From Malonomonas rubra DSM 5091 (GTDB lineage: Bacteria; Desulfobacterota; Desulfuromonadia; Desulfuromonadales; Geopsychrobacteraceae), in assembly GCF_900142125.1 (NCBI RefSeq), contig NZ_FQZT01000012.1:27965-51964 (forward strand): a stretch of 24,000 nt of DNA, written 5' to 3'. Below are positions 1 to 12,750 of the stretch, piece by piece. Under the pieces are notes generated by a model. That model was not told where the DNA came from, did not search any database, and worked only from the letters and a program-made list of their open reading frames with translations. A program made the translations under genes and the position numbers. Numbering within the stretch: position 1 is the first letter of the stretch; each line of letters starts with the position of its first letter.

Positions 1-903
1 AGGCGTAATGCCTCTCCCTTTCCAGTCAGCCATTTCAACACTATCGGGTGGAACACTTCCCCCAATGAAAGTGAAGCGCTCTTTCAAGTCATCAAATCTC
101 TTTCCGTCAGCGGCTACAGCATTGAGAAGATAGCGCATGGGAGGGTCGTTGGCACTGTACCCGACCAAAACGATATGGTAGAGGCGTGCGACATCATAAA
201 TAAAATCTGGCACGACCCGTCTTCTCAAATAGAACTCGCCAAAATCCTGATCAGTAAGTATCAAGTCCACATTTCGGGATGGATCAGAATCCAATGCACC
301 GTGGATATGTAAAACTCCGGAGAAGTCCTCTCTACGCCCAGGCCTTGGGATTCCTCCGAGGGTATATGTTTCAACTTTCTGACCTTGATTACGCGAGGCT
401 TTTTCCAACAGAAGATCGAAGTTGGTCGTTGCGATTGCCACAGCCCCACCACGATCAGACAAGCGCATAAGCGATCGATGAACCGGACTTGGCTTCGAGC
501 CTTTAGTAAGGAGTAGAGTTCTTACCGCTTGCCTGACCTTGCTTTTTGCGTGCGGGTCATTATCAATCCGACGTTCAAGTAAACCCAAAACGACATCATA
601 ATCTTTTTGAACAAACCTCCTCACCTCTGCTGATTGGCCTTCATTTAAAGTCGAAAGATCTGGCTGATAACAATCGGGAGCATTGGAAGGGATGATGGAG
701 ATAACTGCGTGAACTGCTTGATCTAGAATACTATACACCTGAAGCACTAAATCTCTAAAATCAGGTAACGTTGGCCGCGAGATACCGGCACCCGCAATAA
801 AAAGGACCTCACCTCTAGCGTGAGCCAGCAATAGCCTCTCTGGGATCGCTGGGAGGCCAGGTCCTAAAGGAATAATTCGATCGCTTGCTAGGCTTTTATT
901 CAT
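1..903 (-). CDS. SIR2-family (SIR2_2 / ThsA-DSR-like) NAD-binding domain protein; N-terminal 301 aa, C-terminus outside the window
   Basis: Absent from the ORF track because it runs off the window. ATG at 903-901. I checked every in-frame triplet down to nt 1 and found no stop. The translation begins MNKSLASDRIIPLGPGLPAIPERLLLAHARGEVLFIAGAGISRPTLPDF. Later segments are AIATTNFDLLLE, GVLHIHGALD and IVLVGYSANDPPMRYLL. These carry the GAGxS, TTNxD, HxHG and VGYSxxD motifs typical of defence-type sirtuin domains. Confidence 0.75.
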   Translation of the reverse strand, partial: MNKSLASDRIIPLGPGLPAIPERLLLAHARGEVLFIAGAGISRPTLPDFRDLVLQVYSILDQAVHAVISIIPSNAPDCYQPDLSTLNEGQSAEVRRFVQKDYDVVLGLLERRIDNDPHAKSKVRQAVRTLLLTKGSKPSPVHRSLMRLSDRGGAVAIATTNFDLLLEKASRNQGQKVETYTLGGIPRPGRREDFSGVLHIHGALDSDPSRNVDLILTDQDFGEFYLRRRVVPDFIYDVARLYHIVLVGYSANDPPMRYLLNAVAADGKRFDDLKERFTFIGGSVPPDSVEMADWKGRGITP

Positions 904-971
904 TACATTTCACCGACTTAACATACAGACAACAGAGACGACAGATATCCGCCATGCCTACATCTGTTGCG

Positions 972-1952
972 TCAATAAACCATCTCATCCCTTGAATCAT
1001 GCCAATGTGGATTTATCTTTCCGTCTTTGAGCGGTGTGTTGTCCTCTATTGGGCCGATAATCGCTTCAAGCTTTTCACGCCACCCCTTGCGCGAATACCA
1101 GTTACGCACCTTCAATGCTTCTTCAGAATCAGCAACCGAGCGGCTTTCTGCTGCAGTAAAAATGTAATCTTCTGGATACCAGCCGACATGAGAGCGATGT
1201 TCCATCAGGGGCCCAGGAAAAATCTGCCCTTCCATAATTGCCTCAATCTCATCGGCCTCCATGACACAGCCTTTGAAGTAGATGCCGAGCATGTGCGCGA
1301 TTAGCGTTTTGGCCTTAAGCTGCATTCGCGTGCGTTCGTAGCCCCAGTAAATCTGGTCTCCTAGTGGGTAGTAGCGCCAGATAGAATCTTGGCAGCAGTC
1401 GCCCCAATGATCGAGTTCCACCCTGAACAAAAGAGCGATAAAAAAACAATCACAAGGGCCGTGTGACTCGATACTTTTCTGCAATTTGTCTTCTGGTCGT
1501 TTAATCGCGAATCCTTGAATAGCAACACCTGACTTTTTCAGCTCAAGCAAAAAATCTATATAGCTTGACAAGTCGTCGTTGTGACCGAGATAGGGGTATA
1601 TTGGCACATCCTTACCATCCAACCAGTCCCGCTGAACACCAAAACTGTCACAAGTTGTTTGCAGCAATTTTTCGTTGAGAGCTTGGAGCAACTTTTCGTC
1701 GGTACTAACGTCGACAAGCGAAAGCCCGCCCTCCTCTCCGAGAAACCTTGGAATCTGGGTTCGCTCTATGCCATGTGACTTGTATATCTGCACAAATCGT
1801 TCAACCAGAGAAAACACTTCACTAGTTTTGGGCTGTTCTTCTTGTTGATTTTGCCCGACTAATGATTCGGCTGATTTTCTAGTTACCCATCGCCAAAAAG
1901 CGTATATGCCCCCAATCACAGCAAATAAAGAAGCGATTGTTTCAAGCATCAC
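972..1952 (-). CDS. Hypothetical membrane-anchored protein (326 aa), no recognisable family
   Basis: ORF-track ORF. Its start (GTGATG at 1952-1947) overlaps the hsdS stop TGA (1951-1949), implying translational coupling. The N-terminal hydrophobic helix LETIASLFAVIGGIYAFWRWV is followed by a Q/E-rich linker and a soluble part of about 280 aa rich in Trp/Tyr/Cys. I recognise no catalytic motif. Confidence 0.7.
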   Translation of the reverse strand: MMLETIASLFAVIGGIYAFWRWVTRKSAESLVGQNQQEEQPKTSEVFSLVERFVQIYKSHGIERTQIPRFLGEEGGLSLVDVSTDEKLLQALNEKLLQTTCDSFGVQRDWLDGKDVPIYPYLGHNDDLSSYIDFLLELKKSGVAIQGFAIKRPEDKLQKSIESHGPCDCFFIALLFRVELDHWGDCCQDSIWRYYPLGDQIYWGYERTRMQLKAKTLIAHMLGIYFKGCVMEADEIEAIMEGQIFPGPLMEHRSHVGWYPEDYIFTAAESRSVADSEEALKVRNWYSRKGWREKLEAIIGPIEDNTPLKDGKINPHWHDSRDEMVY

Positions 1953-3664
1953 GCCACCAAAAGCTGCCGAACGGTAGCTTCCAAAAGTTTTTCGCTGTGC
2001 TGCTCGGTTTGGTTGAGCTTAACTTCGAGTTCGTCGCAAAGGGACATAAGTTGATCAACCTTGGCAACGATGCGTTTTTGCTCCGAGGTAGAGGGGACTG
2101 GCACCTCTATCGCTTTAATTTTGCCAATATATAAGCATGGCTGTGCAGACTGTTTAACATTGCCCCAAATTTGATTTTGCCCAACAGGGCTACGAAGCAA
2201 AACCGATAGGTACTCAGGCAAAATCCCTGGAGTAAACGGGCGGATTAAAGCAACACTCCTGACTAAAACGAAGTCTTCAGGGTCTTTGATTACAGTCAAA
2301 CGACCAGTGGTCGCTCCGACACACACCATCAAAATATCATCATGTCTCGGGTAGCACCTTCTCCAACATTTTTCTGCTGTTTCTTCGGATACAAAATCCG
2401 TGACTCGCAGATCAACATACCCATCCCTTATATTTTTTGCTGTTGCCAAAGGCACTCCTGAAGCAACTCTCGGAGGCGTCGAATGCTCCCCATCTGTAAC
2501 TAGCAACGTCACATCCTGAAAACGTGACCATACCCAACCATCTGGAACTGGATGCAGAAGACCCTCAACCTCAGGAAGCGTTTTGTCCTTCTTAATAGCC
2601 TTCTCCTTAACCAGCCTCTCCTTTTCAGCCTTAATCCTTTTCAGCAAAACCGAAGCAGGCTCATCGTTGGGATCTTGGGGGACGAGCTTGCCCTGAACTG
2701 CGAGCTGGAGGATGGCTGCGCGGAGTTTGGCGATGGTTTCGGGGTGGTCGTAGAGCAGGTCGAAGTTGGTGCTGATGCGCTGCCAGTGGTCGGCGAATTC
2801 GTCGGGTTCGCGGGCGGTGAGCAGTGCGTCGAGGGCGGCGTTGTTGAGGCGCACCCGCCCCTGCTGCTGCATTTGCTGGCGATCTTCGAGTTCGTCGCAC
2901 AGGGCCATGAGTTGGTCGACCTTGGCGACTATGCGTTTTTGTTCTTCGAGGGGTGGGAGAGGGATCGGAACTTCATTTGCCCTCGAAATTGTCAGCGTAT
3001 GAACCGTGGTCCCCATGCTTTCTTTATGAATCGTATCAATCCAATATGGAGTCCTCAGAAGACAACTTAGGAACCGAGAATATAAACCATAGTGGTTTTT
3101 AAAAATCAGAACGCTCGCGTCCTTGAAGTAAAATCTGTCTGAGTTTTTGACTATATACGGGATGCCAATCGTTCCAACCCCAGTGATCATCAGGTCGTTT
3201 TCTTCTGGCACTAATCCACCATTTGACAACTCCTGAAACAATTCCTCAGAAATAAAAAGCTCATTATTCACAGTTCCGAACTGTGAGAGTTTGACTATCT
3301 CTCTCGCCCTAAGAAAAGGGACCCCCTTGCTTTTCCAATCTTTTTTATGAACTCGACTGCTTGAGCCAATCAACCCCAGCGCACCAAATCTGCACCACTC
3401 CCATGCCCTTGGAAGCTCGAAAGGGATACCATCCTCGGAGATAGGAGGTAGAGTCTTGGGTGGCTTTATTCTTCCCTCAGTTACAAGTCTTTCTTTTGCA
3501 ATCTTAATTTTCTCCAGCAAAACAGAAGCAGGCTCATCGCTCGGATCTTGCGGCACTAGCTTCCCCTGCACCGCAAGCTGAAGAATCAACTCCCGCAGCT
3601 TTTGCACCCCGTTGGGCGCATCGACCAGATGTCCAAAATTGGCAAAGAACGTCTCGGCGGTCAT
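1949..3664 (-). CDS. hsdS: Type I restriction-modification specificity subunit HsdS (two target-recognition domains)
   Basis: 571 aa. Duplicated conserved helices ILQLAVQGKLVPQDP[S/N]DEPASVLL and [E/S]EQKRIVAKVDQLM[A/S]LCDELE flank two divergent TRDs. There is a 4-nt overlap with hsdM. Confidence 0.9.
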   Translation of the reverse strand: MTAETFFANFGHLVDAPNGVQKLRELILQLAVQGKLVPQDPSDEPASVLLEKIKIAKERLVTEGRIKPPKTLPPISEDGIPFELPRAWEWCRFGALGLIGSSSRVHKKDWKSKGVPFLRAREIVKLSQFGTVNNELFISEELFQELSNGGLVPEENDLMITGVGTIGIPYIVKNSDRFYFKDASVLIFKNHYGLYSRFLSCLLRTPYWIDTIHKESMGTTVHTLTISRANEVPIPLPPLEEQKRIVAKVDQLMALCDELEDRQQMQQQGRVRLNNAALDALLTAREPDEFADHWQRISTNFDLLYDHPETIAKLRAAILQLAVQGKLVPQDPNDEPASVLLKRIKAEKERLVKEKAIKKDKTLPEVEGLLHPVPDGWVWSRFQDVTLLVTDGEHSTPPRVASGVPLATAKNIRDGYVDLRVTDFVSEETAEKCWRRCYPRHDDILMVCVGATTGRLTVIKDPEDFVLVRSVALIRPFTPGILPEYLSVLLRSPVGQNQIWGNVKQSAQPCLYIGKIKAIEVPVPSTSEQKRIVAKVDQLMSLCDELEVKLNQTEQHSEKLLEATVRQLLVA

Positions 3665-5130
3665 GCCGACTCCCCCGCCGCATCGGTAGCCCGCTCCAAC
3701 GCATCCATCAACTCCTGCTTCAGCTTTTCACGAGTCTCGGAAACACTGGCGAGCAGTGTTTTATACTCGGCCAGCAGCTCTTCGGGATCGCCGTGGTCAG
3801 CCTCGACGGTGTTGGGGTTCTTGATATCGAGGTTGTAGCCGTTGACCTTGATCTGTTCGACCGAAACCTTCCACGCCTGCTCGCTCTCCACCCGGTTCTG
3901 CCACCATGCCTTCTCGGGCGCGAACTCTTCGATGCGCATCGGCTTGGTCTTGGAGTAGCTCTTGTACCCTTCGGGATAGGGGTGCTCGTAGTACCAGACC
4001 TCCTTGGTCGGCTCCCCCTTGGTGAAGAACAGCAGGTTGGTCTTGATGCCGGTGTAGGGGTTGAATACACCGTTGGGCAGACGTACCACGGTGTGCAGGT
4101 TGCAATCTTCGAGCAGCTTTTCTTTGATACGGGTCTTGACGCCTTCACCGAACAGGGTGCCGTCGGGCAGAACGATGGCGGCACGACCACCAGTTTTGAG
4201 CAGGTGCATGATCAGCACCAGGAACAGGTCGGCGGTTTCACGGGTACGGAAGCTGGCCGGGAAATTGGCCTCGATGCCGTCCTCTTCGGTGCCACCGAAC
4301 GGAGGGTTGGTGACCACCACATCAACTCGATCCTTGGGGCCATAATCACGTAGGGGGCGCGACAGGGTGTTGTCGTGACGGATGTTGGACGGCACTTCGA
4401 CACCGTGCAGCAGCATGTTGGTGGTGCAGAGCAGATGCGGCAGAGCTTTTTTCTCAACGCCGAAGACCGATTTCTGCAAAAGCTGCTCATCCTCAGCGGT
4501 CTTCACGTAATTGCCGCGTACATGTTCGATGGAACAGGAGAGGAAGCCGCCGGTGCCGCAGGCCGGATCGAGGAGCTTCTCACCGAGTTTCGGATCGACC
4601 ATGTCGACCATGAACTGGGTGACGGCACGCGGAGTGTAGAACTCCCCGGCGTTGCCCGCGCTCTGCAAGTCCTTGAGGATCTGCTCGTAGATGTCGCCGA
4701 AAGTATGGCGGTCGGTGGAGCGGTTGAAGTCGATCTCGTTGATCTTGTTGACCACCTGACGGATGAGGGTGCCGTTCTTCATGTAGTTGTAGGCATCCTC
4801 GAATACCGAGCGCACCACCAGGCCGCGCCCGTTGGTTCCGGCGTTCAGCTCCAGCTCCTTGAGGCTCTTGAACAGGTCGTTGTTGATAAAGTCGAGCAGT
4901 TCGTCGCCGGTAATTCCTTCGCTATCGGCAGCCCAATTGCGCCAGCGCAGTTGCTCGGGGATGGGAGAGCTGTATTCGTCGGAGAGGAGTTCCAGCTCCT
5001 GCTCCTGATCATCGAAAATTTTCAGAAAGAACATCCAGACAAGCTGGCCAATCCGCTGCGCATCGCCGTCAACCCCGGCGTCCTTGCGCATAATGTCCTG
5101 GATGGATTTGATGGTGGTGGATACTGACAT
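3661..5130 (-). CDS. hsdM: Type I restriction-modification N6-adenine DNA methyltransferase subunit HsdM
   Basis: 489 aa. SAM-binding motif I is LDPACGTGGFL and catalytic motif IV is VVTNPPFGG. The N-terminus is HsdM_N-like. AAGGAG Shine-Dalgarno sequence (SD) lies just upstream, overlapping the hsdR stop. Confidence 0.95.
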   Translation of the reverse strand: MSVSTTIKSIQDIMRKDAGVDGDAQRIGQLVWMFFLKIFDDQEQELELLSDEYSSPIPEQLRWRNWAADSEGITGDELLDFINNDLFKSLKELELNAGTNGRGLVVRSVFEDAYNYMKNGTLIRQVVNKINEIDFNRSTDRHTFGDIYEQILKDLQSAGNAGEFYTPRAVTQFMVDMVDPKLGEKLLDPACGTGGFLSCSIEHVRGNYVKTAEDEQLLQKSVFGVEKKALPHLLCTTNMLLHGVEVPSNIRHDNTLSRPLRDYGPKDRVDVVVTNPPFGGTEEDGIEANFPASFRTRETADLFLVLIMHLLKTGGRAAIVLPDGTLFGEGVKTRIKEKLLEDCNLHTVVRLPNGVFNPYTGIKTNLLFFTKGEPTKEVWYYEHPYPEGYKSYSKTKPMRIEEFAPEKAWWQNRVESEQAWKVSVEQIKVNGYNLDIKNPNTVEADHGDPEELLAEYKTLLASVSETREKLKQELMDALERATDAAGESA

Positions 5131-5146: not shown

Positions 5147-7495
5147 TTATCCTGCGGTTCCATAGAGTTGTTGTTCGAGCTCACGTAGAGCAAGTTCAAA
5201 CTGTTTACGGCCGCCAAATTGCCGAACGATCTCAATCGGCGTACCGAATCTGTCGAGCGGCTGAACACGTAGCACCTTGAGATCTTCGATGCTTTCCACG
5301 CCCTCATCGGCATACTTATCGAGCAACGCGTCTAATACCGCTTTGGCCTGCTCGCCGTACTTTGCAAAGTAATTTCGTTTGCGGACATTCTCCGCACGTT
5401 CGCGCCTTGTCAGTGGCGGCTGGTCGAAAGCAACATGGCAAATCAAATCGAAAGGTCCGAAGTCCTTTCCGACCTCATCTGCCAGGGCATCCCAGAGGAT
5501 TCCCTCTTCTGCGAGTTCATCAATAACTGCCTGTTTCTTATCTGCCTCACTCCAGTGACGGATAAAGTCACGCAGAGTCTTAAATTCCTTTGCTACAGTC
5601 TTTTTGGTGTAGTCCTTGAGCGATTCGGTAATCAACTTGCCATCTGGGCCGTAGTATTGGACCCGCTCAGCAACCACATAAAAAGGAACATCGCCAACGA
5701 CATATTTCTTGCGCGGCTCAGGCTCTGGCCCGTCGCCAGGGGGAATAGGCGGAGGTTCAGGATGATCAGGGGGCTCACCATCTTCTGGTGGTTCTGGTGG
5801 AACAGGAGGGTCATCTGGACCAGGCTCGTAGATTTGCACCGGGTCACCATCAAAATCGGGATCGGCAAATAACTCTGTCGCCTTTTTGAAGTCGATGATG
5901 GTGAAGTAATACTTGTCGTAATCCTCGTTGATACGGGTACCACGACCGATGATCTGTTTAAAGGTTGTCATCGAGTTGATGGTCTGGTCGAGGACAATCA
6001 GTTTGCAGGTCTGGGCATCAACCCCCGTGTTCATCAGTCGGGAAGTCGTTGCAATCACCGGGTAGCGACTTTCTGGGTCGATAAAATTGTCGAGCTCCAT
6101 CTTGCCGAGATTGTCATCTCCGGTGATTTTCATCACGTACTTGCTGTTTTCTGCGGCGAGATCCTTGTTCGCGTTGACCAGTTCCTGCCGCATCCGCTCG
6201 GCGTGATCTATATCTTCACAAAAGACGATAGTCTTATCGAAACGGTTACTGGCCTTGAGGAATGCTGTGATCTTCTGCGCCACCAGTCGGGTGCGCAGCT
6301 CCATCACCAGCTCCCTGTCCATATCTTTGAGGTTGTAGATCCGGTCAGGGATTAGGTTGCCACTCCTGTCAACCTGGCCAGATTCAGGTCGCCAACCCTG
6401 AAGGTCTTTATCGAGATCGATCCGCACCACCTTGTAGGGAGCGAGGAAGCCATCATCGATTCCCTGCCGAAGGGAATATGTGTAGACCGGTTCGCCGAAG
6501 TAGTGAATATTGCTAACGTCCTTTGTTTCCTTCGGGGTTGCAGTCAAACCGACATGCGTGGCAGTGGAGAAATAATCGAGAATCTCCCGCCATGCAGAAT
6601 CTTCGGCGGCGCTGCCACGATGACATTCGTCGATCACCACCAAGTCGAAGAAATCTGGGGAGAACTGCTTGTAGATATTTTTTTCTTCCTCGTTGCCGGT
6701 CACCGCCTGATAGAGAGACAGGTAGATCTCGTATGACTTGTCGGCCTGACGCTTTTCGATCTTGGTCATTGCCGGACCAAACGGTTTGAAGTCGTTAGTC
6801 TTGGTCTGGTCGACAAGGATATTGCGGTCAGCAAGGAAGAGGATGCGTTTCTTGGTGCGAGACTTCCACAGACGCCAGATGATCTGGAATGCAGTATAGG
6901 TTTTTCCGGTTCCGGTAGCCATGACCAAAAGCAGCCGGTTTTGCCCCTTGGCTATGGCCTCAACCGTGCGATTAATGGCGACCCGCTGGTAGTAACGTGG
7001 TTCTTTTCCACTGCCGTCGGCATAATAGGGCTGCTCGACGACATCTTCAACCGAAGGCCCTATTTTCTTCCACTGCTTATAACGTTGCCAAAGGTCTGCT
7101 GGTGACGGGAACTGTTCGAGAGAGAGTTGCTGCTCTACTGAGTCAGACAGCCCTGTACGATCATGAAAAAGAAATCCATCTCCGTTGGAGCTGAACGCGA
7201 AAGGCACATCGAGGATCTCGGCATAGTCGAGTGCCTGCTGCATGCCGTGTCCGATACTGTGAGTATTATCTTTCGCCTCGATAATGGCGATAGGTTGGTT
7301 CGGTTTGTGGTAAAGGACGTAATCGGCGCGCTTGGCCTTGCCACGGGAATGCAGCTTGCCGCGGACAATGATGCGCCCAGCCGTAAATGTGACCTCTTCG
7401 CGAACCTGCGTGTGGGTATCCCAGCCGGAAGAGAGGACTGCCGGGAGAATGAACTTGGTGCAGATATCGCGCTCAGACAGGTCTTTCTTCGACAT
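5147..7495 (-). CDS. hsdR: Type I restriction enzyme endonuclease/translocase subunit HsdR (EcoEI/EcoAI-like, family IB-type C-terminal domain)
   Basis: 782 aa. The N-terminal PD-(D/E)xK nuclease motif is ADYVLY...IAIIEAKD. Walker A is [11 protein letters not shown] and the DEAH box is VIDECHR, followed by helicase C motifs. After a Pro/Glu-rich linker, the C-terminal roughly 170 aa resemble the EcoEI_R_C domain. Confidence 0.93.
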
Positions 7496-7770: not shown

Positions 7771-8162
7771 CAATAACCACAGCTCAGCGTTGACCATTTT
7801 CGCGCCGGCGTGGGGCAGCGCCTACGGGAGCCCCCCAAACCGTACCCTTGCCGCTCAAAAAAATAGGTACGCAAGAAAATAATTACTATAATTCAGAAGG
7901 TTAAGTCGTCTTTCCCGGAATGGAAATTAGCAAAAATCGACCCGTGAACCAAATTTAAAAAAGGCGCCTAAAGCCGCTTTTTCAATCTGCAGAGCTTAAA
8001 AGTGGGATGCTATTATGTCCCCATCATAGCTGCCGGGGATACGGTATCGTCCGCATAGACCAAGGGCATCGACCCTACGGTTTCATCTCACGCAGTAAAC
8101 GATTAGGTAGCTGGCCGAATAAACAGCCTGAACTCATGGCGAATTAGACCGCCTCAAACTCA

Positions 8163-8845: not shown

Positions 8846-9787
8846 ATGAAATGCGGCAGCGAGAAAAACAACGGCTGGGGAACGCCTCTGATATGGGCAT
8901 GCCTCCAAGCCCTCAAACACAGATACGGCAAAGGGTGCTACGCGACTTTAGCGACCCACAAAGCTCATTTAACTCATTTTGCGAAGTACCTGAAGGCCCA
9001 CAACATCAACGATATCATGCGGGTGTCTGTGGAGGTGTTGCTTGCCTACGCAACATGCGTGCAGGAAAAACACAGCAATAACTATGCAAGGAACCTGATT
9101 AGCAGTGCGAACATCATCGTTGAGTCTGTCCGCGGCGATCGCAAGGTCCGGCTCGACCCATCGGAGGTTCTGGCACGTCGACAATCTGCCCGCAAGGATG
9201 CACCAGCAGGGCTAAATCTTGATGATGTCAATCGGGCAGCAGAGAGCCTCACCGAGAACGGCTACCCGAGAATCGCCGTCCTCATTCTGCTGATCAGACA
9301 TTTCGGAATGCGGCTCAAGGAGGGCTGCCTTATTGATCTCCGTGTCGCGTTACGACAAGCTAAAAAGCACGGGAAGATCGATGTGCGTCGAGGGACAAAA
9401 GGCGGTAGAGGCCGAACAATCGAAAGGTGGGTGCCTGCCACGGAACAAGCAATTGAGGTGCTGGTTCAGGCTCAAGCCTTTAGCTCAAAAGAAACAGGAA
9501 GCCTTATTCCGTCTGATATGAGTTCGGTTGAGTTTATGCGGCTGGCGAAAAGGGTATGGCGAAAAGTTAGGAAGGAATTTGGTCTCAGCAAAATCCACGA
9601 TCTGCGTTCAGCGTTCGCCTGCGATCGATATAAACAACTGACTGGCCATGATGCCCCGGCATGCCATCGCGGGAATCTCTCCGCGACGAAAGAGCAAGAC
9701 CGAAAAGCTCGCGATGTCATCGTTAAGGAGATTGGGCATGGAAGCCGTGGGCGCATGGCACCTTATGTCGGGCGAGGTGCGCGATGA
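8846..9787 (+). CDS. Tyrosine recombinase / phage-integrase-family protein
   Basis: 313 aa. GGAG SD sits 8 nt before the ATG. The full catalytic set is visible in order: Arg in HFGMRLKEG, Lys in RGTKGGRGRTI, His-x-x-Arg in IHDLRSAFA, then GH and Tyr in EIGHGSRGRMAPYVG. Confidence 0.7.
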   Translation: MKCGSEKNNGWGTPLIWACLQALKHRYGKGCYATLATHKAHLTHFAKYLKAHNINDIMRVSVEVLLAYATCVQEKHSNNYARNLISSANIIVESVRGDRKVRLDPSEVLARRQSARKDAPAGLNLDDVNRAAESLTENGYPRIAVLILLIRHFGMRLKEGCLIDLRVALRQAKKHGKIDVRRGTKGGRGRTIERWVPATEQAIEVLVQAQAFSSKETGSLIPSDMSSVEFMRLAKRVWRKVRKEFGLSKIHDLRSAFACDRYKQLTGHDAPACHRGNLSATKEQDRKARDVIVKEIGHGSRGRMAPYVGRGAR

Positions 9788-10224
9788 GGTGGGAGATAGG
9801 CCCAACTAGGGCACAGCGTGAAGCCACAGACTTTATCAAAAGTCGGCTACAAGGCAGTAAGAAAGGCATTGGCCGACAGCTCAAAGAGTGTCTGCGTGTG
9901 ATCTCGGTTATCAATGGGAAATTCGGTGTCGGCATCTATAACCTGAAATGCAGCCATCTGCACTGGTATTTGTCCGTGTACGACAAGGACCATAGCCCCA
10001 AGACGCGAAATAACCACTGGTACGCCGTATTAAGAATTATCGAAGCCTTGGGCAAAGAGGCTGATTGGAAGCCAAGACTTTCCAGTGGCCCCTGGGTTCG
10101 AAAGAACGGTGATTACTCTAAGCCAATCGAAATACGGCGTCCGAGCAAAAAGGCCACGCCATCCTTCCGAGGTAGGAGGCAAACTACACCAACAGCCACT
10201 CACAAAAATCGAAAAAGGCGCTAA
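9784..10224 (+). CDS. Hypothetical protein (146 aa) with a basic C-terminal tail, translationally coupled to the tyrosine recombinase
   Basis: ATGA start/stop overlap with the upstream gene at 9784-9787. No motif recognised. The Lys/Arg-rich C-terminus is RRPSKKATPSFRGRRQTTPTATHKNRKRR. Confidence 0.5.
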   Translation: MRWEIGPTRAQREATDFIKSRLQGSKKGIGRQLKECLRVISVINGKFGVGIYNLKCSHLHWYLSVYDKDHSPKTRNNHWYAVLRIIEALGKEADWKPRLSSGPWVRKNGDYSKPIEIRRPSKKATPSFRGRRQTTPTATHKNRKRR

Positions 10225-10336
10225 ATGACGTTTTTTCGGAACTCATTTTTAAAATCAAGCTGTCAAACTGACACTGTAATTAAAAATTAAAACTACGGGT
10301 TCCCGACAAGACTTCGAAGTGGGCCAAGGAGCAGAC

Positions 10337-10519
10337 ATGTTTGATCGAGACAAGATAGCGACCCTCATAAATAAAAGAGTCAACCGGGTACTTCAATACG
10401 CTGAAGCATCATTACCACAAAGTCAATTCCGAGCATTTCGGAAGTTAGTACTCGATGAATTCGGCGACAACGGAATGGCTAAAGACTTAAACAAAATGGG
10501 ACGGAACGGGCAGGAATAG
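10337..10519 (+). CDS. Small hypothetical protein (60 aa from the ATG; the track lists a 66-aa GTG-start version from 10319)
   Basis: AAGGAG at 10326-10331 lies 5 nt upstream of the ATG at 10337. The sequence looks helical and no family is recognised. Confidence 0.4.
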   Translation: MFDRDKIATLINKRVNRVLQYAEASLPQSQFRAFRKLVLDEFGDNGMAKDLNKMGRNGQE

Positions 10520-10547
10520 ATTATGCGAAGAAGGAGGTGCGCCATGA

Positions 10548-10688
10548 GTGGATAGCGCAAGCCGCAACAGTGACCAATTGGCAAACGAATATTCCGAATG
10601 GCAAGACAAACCACTACCGGAAGAAATACGACTTATTCAGACACACTTAGCAGACATATTGGAAGATATGTTTCAAGAATCAAACTGA
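10548..10688 (+). CDS. Unlisted small acidic ORF (46 aa, GTG start): MDSASRNSDQLANEYSEWQDKPLPEEIRLIQTHLADILEDMFQESN
   Basis: Below the size cutoff of the ORF track. A perfect AAGGAGG at 10531-10537 lies 10 nt before the GTG at 10548. Its TGA (10686-10688) overlaps an ATG at 10688 that is in frame with the resolvase-like gene. The sequence reads like a real helical protein. Confidence 0.35.
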   Translation: MDSASRNSDQLANEYSEWQDKPLPEEIRLIQTHLADILEDMFQESN

Positions 10689-11137
10689 TGGAGAAGAAAA
10701 TGATTGTAGCCCTTTACGCTCATGCATCACCCGACAGGCAAAGGGAAAATGAACCCTTTGCATCTAACCAAATATCTCGAATGAGGGCCCTTTGCGAGGC
10801 ACAGGGTTTTTCTGTCGCTACTGAATATATTGAGACTGAAGACACTGACACAGAACATCACACCCCAATGTTTAAGAAAATGATTTCTGAGGCCACTGAA
10901 GAAACGGTTCCTTATGACGCCATAATAGTAAGCAGCTGTTCAGGACCGTTTCAGCATGAAGTCACATATGCCATCTACAAGCATCATTTGGGCAAACATG
11001 GTGTCGATCTTATCGATGTAGACCAGCGGAGCCTTGATGAAACCTTTTCCGTGAAGATATTGCGTCTCGTCCTTTCTTCTTATGAGGCCCCCCTTAAAAA
11101 CGACCACATTCTTAGAGATTGGGTGCTAGACAAATGA
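10688..11137 (+). CDS. Resolvase-domain-only serine-recombinase paralog, probably catalytically inactive
   Basis: The track lists 10598-11137, but alignment with the next gene starts at MIVALY (ATG 10700, GGAG 6 nt upstream; alternative ATG at 10688). MIVALYAHASPDRQ aligns with MIVALYARVSTTKQ, and IIVSSCSGPFQHE with IIVHSLSRFFRE. Ser10 is kept. Arg8 is replaced by His, and the two SR..R arginines by Gly and Gln. It has no recombinase or zinc-ribbon domain. ATGA overlap with the next gene at 11134-11137. Confidence 0.7.
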   Translation: MEKKMIVALYAHASPDRQRENEPFASNQISRMRALCEAQGFSVATEYIETEDTDTEHHTPMFKKMISEATEETVPYDAIIVSSCSGPFQHEVTYAIYKHHLGKHGVDLIDVDQRSLDETFSVKILRLVLSSYEAPLKNDHILRDWVLDK

Positions 11138-12750
11138 TAGTTGCACTATACGCTCGCGTATCAACTACAAAGCAGGCCGAAAAGGATCTTTCGATCCCTG
11201 ATCAACTGGGCCAGATGAGGGATTGGTGCAAGTGGCAGGGCCATTCCATCGCTGCTGAGTACAATGAACCCGGAGCTTCTGCAACTGATGACCGTCGGCC
11301 AGTATTTCAACAGATGATAGCCGATGCTTGTGTAAATCCAGCACCCTTTAGCGCAATTATTGTCCATAGCCTGTCACGCTTTTTTCGTGAAGCCATCGAA
11401 TTCGGTATCTATGAAAAGAAGTTGGCCAAACAAGGAATCAGTATTGTCTCAATCACTCAACCGACCAACGATGACATCACTGGAGACCTGATCCGAAGGG
11501 TTATTAATGTCTTTGACGAATATCAAAGCAAAGAGAACGGAAAACACACTCTGAGAGGTATGCAAGAGAATGCTCGCCAAGGCTTTTTCAATGGAGCGAG
11601 ACCACCTTATGGCTATCGTGCAGTCGAAACTGAGCTTCCTGGTAAAAACGGTAAAAAGAAAAAGCTGAAGATTGACGAAAGAGAAGGGCCAACTGTCAAA
11701 AAAATCTTCGACCTTTATTTGAACGGCCACAGAGGGAAAACTCTGGGCGCCTACGGAATCTCCTGTCATCTGAACACGCTGGGAGAAACCCATCGAAGCA
11801 AAGAATGGAGTAGTGCGACCATCCTCTATATACTTAAAAACACTGCCTACATAGGCGAGTACTATTTCAATAAATTTGACTCCAAAAACAGAAAACCCAA
11901 ACCGAAAGAGCAGTGGATTTTGATTCCTGTTCCCTTGCTTATCGATAAAGAAGATTTTGAACGCGTGCAAAACCTTATCAAGGAAAGGGATCCACAGAAA
12001 ACTCCTGCACGCGTCACCAATTCGCCAACCCTGTTAACCGGTCTTCTCAAGTGCTCTTGTGGTGCGAGAATGACACTGGCAACTGGGAAAGGCGGCAAAT
12101 ACCGCTACTACAAATGCACAACGCGGATCAATCGAAACAAGCAAGCCTGCGACAGCTCAAGCATACCGGTCGAGACTTTGGACAGGCTCATCCTTGATGC
12201 AATCTCTGATAAAGTTTTCACTCCTCAAAGGGTCGCTGCAATGCTGAGAATGCTTCAAGAGCAGGTCAAGAATTCGCGCTCAAAGCATGATGGCGAACTA
12301 CTCTCCCTCAAAAAGGAACTTGCCCAAGTAGAGCAATCTCTCAGCCGACTCTACGAAGCGATCGAAAATGGCCTTGTCGCTCTCGATGAGACACTAAAAC
12401 AACGTACACAGAACAACCAGTACAAACGTCAAGAGATTCTGACCGAAATAGCCCGAGTAAAAAAGGAAAGCGAATCAGATTTCGATCAACTCGGACCAGA
12501 AAATGTTTTGCTCTTCTGCAATGCACTGAAGGCGAAGCTACATGACAGCTCGTCAAATTTCGGCAAAAATTATCTTAAATTGCTGATCGAAGATATCACT
12601 GTAGACGGAAAAGAAGTTCGTATCACAGGGAGCTATGCTGCTCTGGCGGGCGCACTGGAAAAAACAAAGGCGGGCGACTCGTCACGAGTGCCCACCTTTG
12701 GTGTGGTATGGCTCCCTTTGCTGGGCTCGAACCAGCGACAATCTGATTAA
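11134..12750 (+). CDS. Large serine recombinase (resolvase domain + recombinase domain + zinc ribbon + coiled coil)
   Basis: The track ORF 11119-12750 uses a TTG start; the likely start is ATG 11134 (MIVALYARVSTTKQ). Visible elements are the catalytic R8/S10, SRFFRE, GARPPYGY, the zinc ribbon CSCGARMTLATGKGGKYRYYKCTTRINRNKQAC, and a coiled coil ELLSLKKELAQVEQSLSRLYEAIENG. The last 42 nt overlap tRNA-Asn on the opposite strand. Confidence 0.9.
   Translation: MIVALYARVSTTKQAEKDLSIPDQLGQMRDWCKWQGHSIAAEYNEPGASATDDRRPVFQQMIADACVNPAPFSAIIVHSLSRFFREAIEFGIYEKKLAKQGISIVSITQPTNDDITGDLIRRVINVFDEYQSKENGKHTLRGMQENARQGFFNGARPPYGYRAVETELPGKNGKKKKLKIDEREGPTVKKIFDLYLNGHRGKTLGAYGISCHLNTLGETHRSKEWSSATILYILKNTAYIGEYYFNKFDSKNRKPKPKEQWILIPVPLLIDKEDFERVQNLIKERDPQKTPARVTNSPTLLTGLLKCSCGARMTLATGKGGKYRYYKCTTRINRNKQACDSSSIPVETLDRLILDAISDKVFTPQRVAAMLRMLQEQVKNSRSKHDGELLSLKKELAQVEQSLSRLYEAIENGLVALDETLKQRTQNNQYKRQEILTEIARVKKESESDFDQLGPENVLLFCNALKAKLHDSSSNFGKNYLKLLIEDITVDGKEVRITGSYAALAGALEKTKAGDSSRVPTFGVVWLPLLGSNQRQSD

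Follow-up and report, generated by a model that had tools for sequence, protein, structure and literature searches.

In this work we describe gene X of Malonomonas rubra DSM 5091, which lies at positions 972–1952 on the minus strand of a 24,000-nucleotide (nt) stretch of contig NZ_FQZT01000012.1 (hereafter the window) and is the fourth, accessory cistron of a type I restriction–modification (R-M) operon, in the order hsdR-hsdM-hsdS-X. Considered together with its homologues, X is very probably an accessory cistron of R-M operons, and by analogy with characterized systems it would be a defence gene embedded in R-M in an accessory or back-up role, with a core domain not described before. Its sequence places it in a large, widespread, unnamed family of predicted modular defence proteins.

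The list of open reading frames (ORFs) and their translations gives X 326 codons, from a GTG at 1952 to the stop codon at 972–974, and the residue numbers used here are those of this 326-codon frame, counted from the GTG. Read from the ATG at 1949 the protein has 325 amino acids (aa), which is the start used in the database protein P0001 of the same strain, 100% identical to X. The junction with hsdS, read directly from the sequence, is GTGATG (1947–1952, minus strand): the minus strand runs ...TTGGTGGCG TGA TGC..., the A of the hsdS stop codon TGA (1949–1951) is shared with the ATG of X (1947–1949) to give TGATG, the same stop codon is nested in the alternative GTG start (1950–1952), and a Shine–Dalgarno-like GGTGG is present 4 nt 5′ of the ATG. 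At the level of the sequence this arrangement shows X to be translationally coupled to hsdS and to be a fourth cistron expressed along with HsdS; given the overlap of stop and start codons, X would be made in step with HsdS. The coupling through GTGATG had been proposed in the initial annotation of this DNA and is strengthened by its recurrence: TGATG is found in the window and in four of the homologous loci that we collected (L001, L011, L023 and L024; loci are designated by L numbers), and L046 has TAATG after a type ISP enzyme.

The ORF itself and the peptides quoted from it in the initial annotation are present as described, and X is confirmed on comparative grounds as a genuine gene and not a chance ORF, because 39 close homologues and 519 cluster representatives were found. 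The former came from a word-indexed search with X (E down to 1e-176), the latter from an exhaustive HMMER search of 1.84 billion cluster representatives, clustered at 50% identity, which returned 519 of them at E ≤ 1e-3 and 236 at E ≤ 1e-10. The family ranges over Proteobacteria and relatives, Firmicutes, Verrucomicrobia, Lentisphaerae and Chlorobi. As had been anticipated, profile libraries do not recognize it: X matched no family of Pfam, NCBIfam or PADLOC at E ≤ 1 except for a sub-threshold match to DUF3611, and none of the R-M models (HsdR, HsdM, HsdS) of Pfam or PADLOC. Only one of the 39 close homologues carries a Pfam domain, in a TIR fusion, and full-text literature searches found no description of the family. 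Since the family is at present invisible to Pfam, NCBIfam and PADLOC, it should at least be named and given a profile in the resources used for defence annotation. The PADLOC candidate-system model PDC-M43A matches 10 of 121 diverse members (alignment A2; best E 1.5e-8) and none of 30 family proteins scanned individually. A phage origin was considered and set aside, as phage homologues of X were absent from 50,697 phage records searched by tblastn and from IMG/VR. One 264-aa viral protein model in BFVD (A0A7G8Z7W6) has an overall fold like that of X (Foldseek E 1.7e-4, probability 1.00, 289 aligned columns).

The link with restriction comes from the neighbourhoods of the homologues. The 63 loci collected in all came from exact-protein look-up, from scanning genome and metagenome collections for peptide patterns, and from two plasmid regions with annotation; hsd genes were called by phmmer and hmmsearch with the subunits of the window, and other neighbours by Pfam. 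Merging of near-identical copies reduced the chromosomal and metagenomic loci to 42 non-redundant ones (our own tally; an earlier stage gave 35 clusters), the plasmid regions being kept apart. Type I or type ISP R-M genes lie within 10 kb of X in 27 of these 42 loci, which bears out the defence context claimed in the initial annotation, and in 15 of the 27 an R-M gene immediately precedes X. It stands directly after hsdS in the window, L001, L003, L011, L015, L023, L024, L053, L055 and L061, directly after hsdR in L017, L033, L039 and L041, and directly after a single-chain type ISP enzyme in L046. In nine further R-M-linked loci, one to three accessory genes (SbcC-like and AAA_21 ATPases, Mrr, a KwaB-like protein and DUF4357, among others) separate the hsd genes from X within a co-directional cluster, and in the three others the hsd genes are downstream of X: hsdR is the next gene in L028, hsdS and hsdM are on the opposite strand in L048, and an hsdMSR operon lies 3.6 kb away in L060. 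The HsdR proteins linked to X belong to different families (EcoEI_R_C, T1RH-like_C and T1R_D3-like). In L055, an hsdRMS-X set is inserted together with MazG-like and HicAB genes among housekeeping genes.

The gene downstream of X, on the other hand, differs in every lineage. In M. rubra it is an SIR2_2 gene (401 aa), followed by a gene for a 906-aa protein; Pelobacter seleniigenes has at this place a CBASS-like set composed of a 382-aa gene, an E2/E1/JAB fusion and a patatin; and other loci have GmrSD, an AAA ATPase or a MazG-like gene. Because the upstream R-M genes stay while the downstream neighbour changes, the partnership of X is with R-M and not with SIR2. The comparison of homologue neighbourhoods that the initial annotation had recommended thus gave linkage to type I and type ISP R-M, and the link with SIR2 suggested there has to be abandoned.

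In the structure prediction and Foldseek searches recommended in the same place, X was resolved into domains. The AlphaFold2 model, built with 37 homologues (predicted local distance difference test, pLDDT, 86; predicted template-modelling score, pTM, 0.80), has four parts: an N-terminal helix, a disordered linker, a helix–turn–helix (HTH)-fold domain and an alpha/beta domain. The HTH fold appears to be of the XRE/CI type and covers residues about 45–115 (1608–1820, minus strand), as judged from Foldseek against BFVD and from conservation. In that search, residues 45–115 matched dozens of phage CI/XRE HTH proteins, with probabilities up to 0.98 but E > 0.09, at a root-mean-square deviation of about 2.9 Å over about 75 residues and a target TM-score (template-modelling score) of about 0.65; the equivalent segment of the family member P0111 has a weak sequence match to the TP901-1 CI repressor (E about 0.6). 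A Pfam scan of X gave no HTH family. This predicted domain, which contradicts the earlier statement that X contains no matchable motif, is the best-conserved part of the family (R52, F53, H60, G61, Q66, I67, P68, R69, F104 and W110).

The C-terminal alpha/beta domain (residues 116–326; 975–1607, minus strand) consists in the AlphaFold2 model of a four-stranded sheet with flanking helices, and was predicted with similar quality when re-modelled alone (pLDDT 84.8, pTM 0.86). Its conserved residues are mostly aromatic (Y119, Y194, W203, R209, K213, W258 and D262), and their inspection revealed no catalytic constellation. Its sole probable neighbour in PDB is 1wn9 (Foldseek E 3.7e-3, probability 0.99, 140 aligned columns), the 127-residue hypothetical protein TT1805 of Thermus thermophilus, which is 15% identical in sequence to the alpha/beta domain of X and provides no functional lead. 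RNase H, Mos1 and RAG1 matched the domain at noise level only, and full-length X had no Foldseek match in PDB at E < 1e-3, the top matches being Mos1 and RAG1 with TM-scores below 0.2. A profile search against PDB sequences gave a lone 29-residue match to major urinary protein, which we regard as spurious. The Cys-rich peptides singled out in the initial annotation, GPCDCFF among them, turned out to be lineage-specific: a metal or redox site formed by the cysteines of GPCDCFF and HWGDCC was considered and rejected, these residues not being conserved even in the 37 closest homologues.

At the other end of the protein, residues 3–23 (LETIASLFAVIGGIYAFWRWV, then basic TRK; 1884–1946, minus strand) form an N-terminal hydrophobic helix according to AlphaFold2 and Kyte–Doolittle analysis, and are the only hydrophobic segment of X; in the model the helix spans residues 3–34, at low pLDDT. 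It is joined to the core by a disordered Q/E-rich linker (residues 27–44; 1821–1874, minus strand; AlphaFold2 and alignment A1), whose pLDDT is below 50 at residues 29–39 and whose length varies in alignment A1.

Comparison across the family shows that the predicted XRE-type HTH fold and the alpha/beta domain make up a constant core and that the N-terminal segment is interchangeable. Among 121 diverse members, the domain N-terminal to the core is SLFN_AlbA_2 in eight, TIR_2 in five, SEFIR in three and DUF4062 in two. TIR or SEFIR domains are carried by P0029, P0062, P0094, P0109 and P0111; the SEFIR-carrying members P0094, P0109 and P0111 match the PADLOC bSEFIR profile, and the SEFIR N-terminus of P0111 matches the crystallized SEFIR domain of Bacillus cereus (5y8e) at E 5e-35. 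The N-termini of P0048 and P0068 look restriction-endonuclease-like by eye only, and Pfam does not confirm it. R-M linkage is kept when the N-terminal domain is swapped: an SLFN-fused member directly follows hsdS, and a SEFIR-fused member is found in an integrase-flanked island with an hsdMSR operon 3.6 kb downstream of it. Sensor–effector defence proteins are usually laid out with a constant C-terminal module and exchangeable effector-type domains at the N-terminus, and the replacement of the N-terminal helix by TIR, SEFIR, DUF4062 or Schlafen/AlbA_2 domains suggests, from sequence comparison, a constant sensing core with an exchangeable output. Of the three roles offered in the initial annotation (sensor, anchor or effector), the sensor and effector roles fit these domain swaps, while the anchor role is borderline only.

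We propose that the HTH and alpha/beta core of X acts as a sensing or regulatory module and that the N-terminal segment provides the output. This output would be, with less assurance, a membrane-inserting helix, in which case activated X might oligomerize, damage or depolarize the inner membrane and arrest the infected cell. More speculatively, the trigger could be tied to restriction, either because phage anti-restriction proteins disable the Hsd complex or because restriction fails, and X could then form a back-up (guard) layer, as PrrC does for EcoprrI and RonA for the HsdMS complex of Ronin. Since X has the build of a phage-defence protein that joins a sensor to an effector, its general role is probably that of a back-up layer to restriction. 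A function in defence is likely, while the complete chain, in which X is by analogy an R-M-coupled abortive-infection or back-up module, comes near to an even chance without reaching it. For its parts, membrane-based abortive infection as the output is a tentative proposal with the balance somewhat against it, and the proposal that X guards restriction, drawn from the same analogy, is doubtful.

Phage and plasmid anti-restriction proteins are most often directed against type I R-M systems, and to our knowledge only a few back-up systems punish the inhibition of restriction (PrrC, PARIS, Ronin and some retrons). If X guards restriction, it would represent a common, so far unannotated second layer of R-M immunity and a new sensor domain. 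In a wider version of the model, which we hold to be possible and also rather unlikely, the HTH and alpha/beta core is a portable guard domain that reads ATP-dependent restriction enzymes (type I, type ISP) or their phage inhibitors and switches on whichever effector is fused to it (membrane helix, TIR, SEFIR, DUF4062 or Schlafen); if true, this would amount to a widespread modular effector-triggered-immunity layer built onto R-M.

Several observations weigh against this proposal. The N-terminal helix of X is a borderline transmembrane (TM) segment, with a maximum over 19 residues on the Kyte–Doolittle scale of 1.59 compared with the usual threshold of 1.6, and many R-M-linked relatives have an amphipathic or polar helix in its place; the segment preceding the core is TM-like in 65 of 178 members with a mapped core, short and non-hydrophobic or amphipathic in 89, and an extension of more than 130 aa in 20. 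Membrane anchoring through a single TM helix, as claimed in the initial annotation, is therefore plausible for X itself without being a family-wide property, and since the helix is borderline in X and amphipathic or polar in relatives, membrane damage is not a secure output. The sample of loci is biased towards the close subfamily, as the pattern scans used two peptide patterns derived from it. No R-M gene is visible in 15 of the 42 loci; eight of these have less than about 3 kb of upstream DNA, and in the seven others (L006, L014, L018, L031, L034, L057 and L062) R-M is absent despite ample flanking DNA. In the two annotated plasmid regions (L058 and L059), the X relative has small hypothetical genes around it, and none within 8 kb is annotated as R-M. 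These R-M-free loci and plasmid relatives indicate that the family can work without an adjacent R-M system, and the variety of the genes found upstream of X (hsdS, hsdR, a type ISP enzyme or unrelated accessory genes such as Mrr, KwaB-like, DUF4357 and AAA_21 ATPase genes) argues against one fixed protein partner.

A first alternative is that X is an autonomous protein, a single-gene defence or toxin-like protein that senses phage alone, needs no Hsd subunit, and has lodged 3′ of R-M and other defence operons for the sake of expression. Besides the variable upstream gene, this alternative can call on the stand-alone and non-R-M loci (L014, L031, L034 and three of the seven R-M-free loci that lie in other defence settings): a TIR-fusion member in a defence island with SIR2_2, DUF4365 and GmrSD, a member at the end of a zorABCD operon, and one upstream of Gabija-like genes on a Tn7-like element. 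However, the bias towards type I and type ISP R-M (27 of 42 loci, adjacent in 15) is much stronger than that towards other systems, and random lodging in defence islands should not so favour one type of system. In addition, the stop/start overlap with hsdS is conserved and R-M linkage persists in the effector-fused variants. We consider an autonomous X unlikely.

These R-M-free loci have features of their own. In L057 (1–8900), P0024, a close homologue of X, ends a type I Zorya operon (zorA, zorB, zorC, zorD), and the 364-aa protein encoded just before it is 59% identical to the product of a 368-aa gene that precedes X in the R-M-linked L013; judging from this resemblance, the 364/368-aa protein may be a recurrent partner of X. 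In L062 (8001–12186), a DUF4062-fused member overlaps by 4 nt the start of the Gabija-like genes, which encode an OLD-type TOPRIM ATPase and a UvrD helicase (gajA-gajB-like) and are cargo of a Tn7-like element with TnsA-like, Mu-transposase-like, TniB and TniQ proteins. Distant relatives of X (22–26% identity) occur on plasmids, at 7803–8927 of L058 (Yersinia enterocolitica NZ_CP124257.1, MPF_I) and in 10 others. Some of these plasmid relatives, including that of the Yersinia MPF_I plasmid, are labelled 'conjugal transfer protein TraE', which is probably a name transfer.

Far less likely is that X controls the R-M operon, at the transcriptional or post-transcriptional level, as C-proteins or RptR do, through an XRE-type HTH followed by a signal-sensing C-terminal domain. 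The fold indeed appears to be of the XRE/CI type, and regulators associated with type I R-M do exist (RptR, PMC12255303). However, the gene is the last of the operon and not the first, X begins with a hydrophobic helix, fusions to TIR, SEFIR, SLFN or DUF4062 make no sense for a plain repressor, and among PDB chains there was no sequence or fold match to solved HTH regulators. Furthermore, the net charge of the HTH segment is negative in 85% of members (−5 in X), which is atypical for DNA binding and makes us doubt, from composition, that the HTH-fold domain is a classical operator-binding domain. This acidic domain could bind a conserved protein partner instead of DNA, and the fact that it is so well conserved across R-M families hints at a ligand of a generic kind. 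Equally improbable is a structural accessory of the restriction enzyme that does no killing, either a membrane tether or adaptor for the Hsd complex where phage DNA enters or a modulator of restriction (self-protection, restriction alleviation): coupling with hsdS suggests stoichiometric co-assembly, the hydrophobic helix is followed by basic residues and type I enzymes are reported to associate with the cytoplasmic membrane, but the helix is not hydrophobic in many R-M-linked relatives, NADase-type or Schlafen-type domains replace it while R-M linkage stays, and most type I systems lack X, so that X is dispensable for restriction.

The R-M genes upstream of X in the window are unambiguous by profile matching. 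On the minus strand, hsdS (1949–3664) encodes a type I specificity subunit of 571 aa (Pfam Methylase_S; PADLOC Specificity_I, E 5e-157), hsdM (3661–5130) a type I methyltransferase of 489 aa (Pfam N6_Mtase and HsdM_N; PADLOC MTase_I), and hsdR (5147–7495) a type I restriction subunit of 782 aa with an EcoEI_R_C C-terminal domain (Pfam ResIII, EcoEI_R_C and HSDR_N; PADLOC REase_I). The hsdS gene contains two near-identical internal segments (2640–2700 and 3520–3600), each encoding QLAVQGKLVPQDP(S/N)DEPASVLL, which represent the conserved region normally duplicated in HsdS; in principle the two half-genes could recombine there.

On the other side, X is separated from the SIR2 gene by a 68-nt spacer (904–971, minus strand). 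A terminator scan of this spacer found nothing convincing, the sole feature being a weak hairpin (938–955) without a proper T-tract, so that transcription may read through from X into SIR2. The first 301 codons of the SIR2 gene are within the window (1–903, minus strand). This fragment matches the N-terminal part of Dsr1 (NCBIfam NF041818, E 2.6e-48; PADLOC Dsr1, 5e-39), with a score for NF041818 well below the curated cut-off, only part of the gene being present. Beyond the start of the window (L052, 11047–14969), the full-length SIR2_2 gene of 401 aa is followed by the gene for the 906-aa protein, which has no Pfam domain, and then by a NucS_C-like gene of 359 aa. The match of the SIR2 part falls in the N-terminus of the 1263-aa Dsr1 model, so that the 401-aa and 906-aa genes look like a Dsr1-like system split into two.

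A recombinase cluster on the plus strand (8846–12750), divergent from hsdR, includes an Integrase_1 protein (313 aa), a 146-aa ORF, a weak resolvase-like ORF and a large serine recombinase (543 aa), and resolvase and KfrA_N-like genes are found farther out on the SIR2 side. Because recombinase or resolvase genes lie on both sides of it, the R-M/X/SIR2 block appears to be on a mobile island. Farther along the window (20431–22725, plus strand), a gene encoding a 764-aa PilB/PilF-type type IV pilus assembly ATPase (PDB 6f8l, E 1e-124) is probably chromosomal backbone outside the island.

Four groups of known proteins can be compared with X. One is the Ronin system of E. coli ECOR55, in which RonA, a 61-aa TM protein linked to hsdS/hsdM, is lethal alone and neutralized by HsdMS, and in which Ocr, ArdA or Aop1 trigger cell death (bioRxiv 10.1101/2023.04.06.535777). 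Like RonA, X has an N-terminal hydrophobic helix and a gene placed tightly beside hsdS/hsdM, and we propose that X could likewise be an effector held in check by the Hsd methylase complex and freed when phage anti-restriction proteins bind this complex. Compared by description, the two differ in that RonA, at about 61 aa, has little beyond its TM helix, whereas X has 326 aa with a folded HTH and alpha/beta core of about 280 aa. Moreover, Ronin is a decoy, HsdMS without hsdR, while X follows a full hsdR-hsdM-hsdS set in the window and in most loci.

PrrC and RloC also resemble X in being encoded by accessory genes in type I R-M operons, and the role proposed for them is that of an abortive back-up once restriction has been neutralized. 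They are composed of an ABC-ATPase (AAA_13) head and an anticodon-nuclease tail, whereas X has neither a P-loop nor a Pfam match. AAA_13 is the ATPase family of RloC and PrrC, and in L048 (1603–4865) X comes right after a 752-aa AAA_13 protein (E 1e-127) instead of replacing it, with hsdS and hsdM on the opposite strand about 6 kb away. With the C-proteins and RptR, a type I-associated repressor encoded by a small 5′ gene (PMC12255303), X shares a genetic association with R-M and, going by fold-level matches, may share an XRE-type HTH. These regulators are small, basic, DNA-binding and encoded at the 5′ end of the operon, whereas X is 3′-terminal, has an acidic HTH, an additional 210-aa domain and an N-terminal helix, and belongs to a family in which this helix is swapped for effector domains.

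TIR and SEFIR defence proteins, such as the SEFIR single-protein defence system of Bacillus sp. NIO-1130 (bioRxiv 10.1101/2022.05.11.491447), have the same layout as the X family, with an N-terminal effector and an uncharacterized C-terminal region; they differ from X itself, which has no SEFIR or TIR domain according to Pfam and PADLOC. In P0111, the alignment with the PADLOC bSEFIR profile extends over about 170 residues of the core. A homology between the X core and the C-terminal domain of ordinary SEFIR proteins was considered and ruled out (hmmsearch negative, hhalign probability 0.4%), and the X core was absent from 106 typical SEFIR proteins of 460–500 aa (common form 478 aa). In conclusion, X is not a member of any of these groups, because of its size and the presence of hsdR (RonA), its lack of an ATPase or nuclease (PrrC/RloC), its position, size and charge (C-proteins/RptR) and its lack of a SEFIR domain (bSEFIR). 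Its mode of action, we propose by analogy, would nevertheless be like that of RonA and PrrC/RloC.

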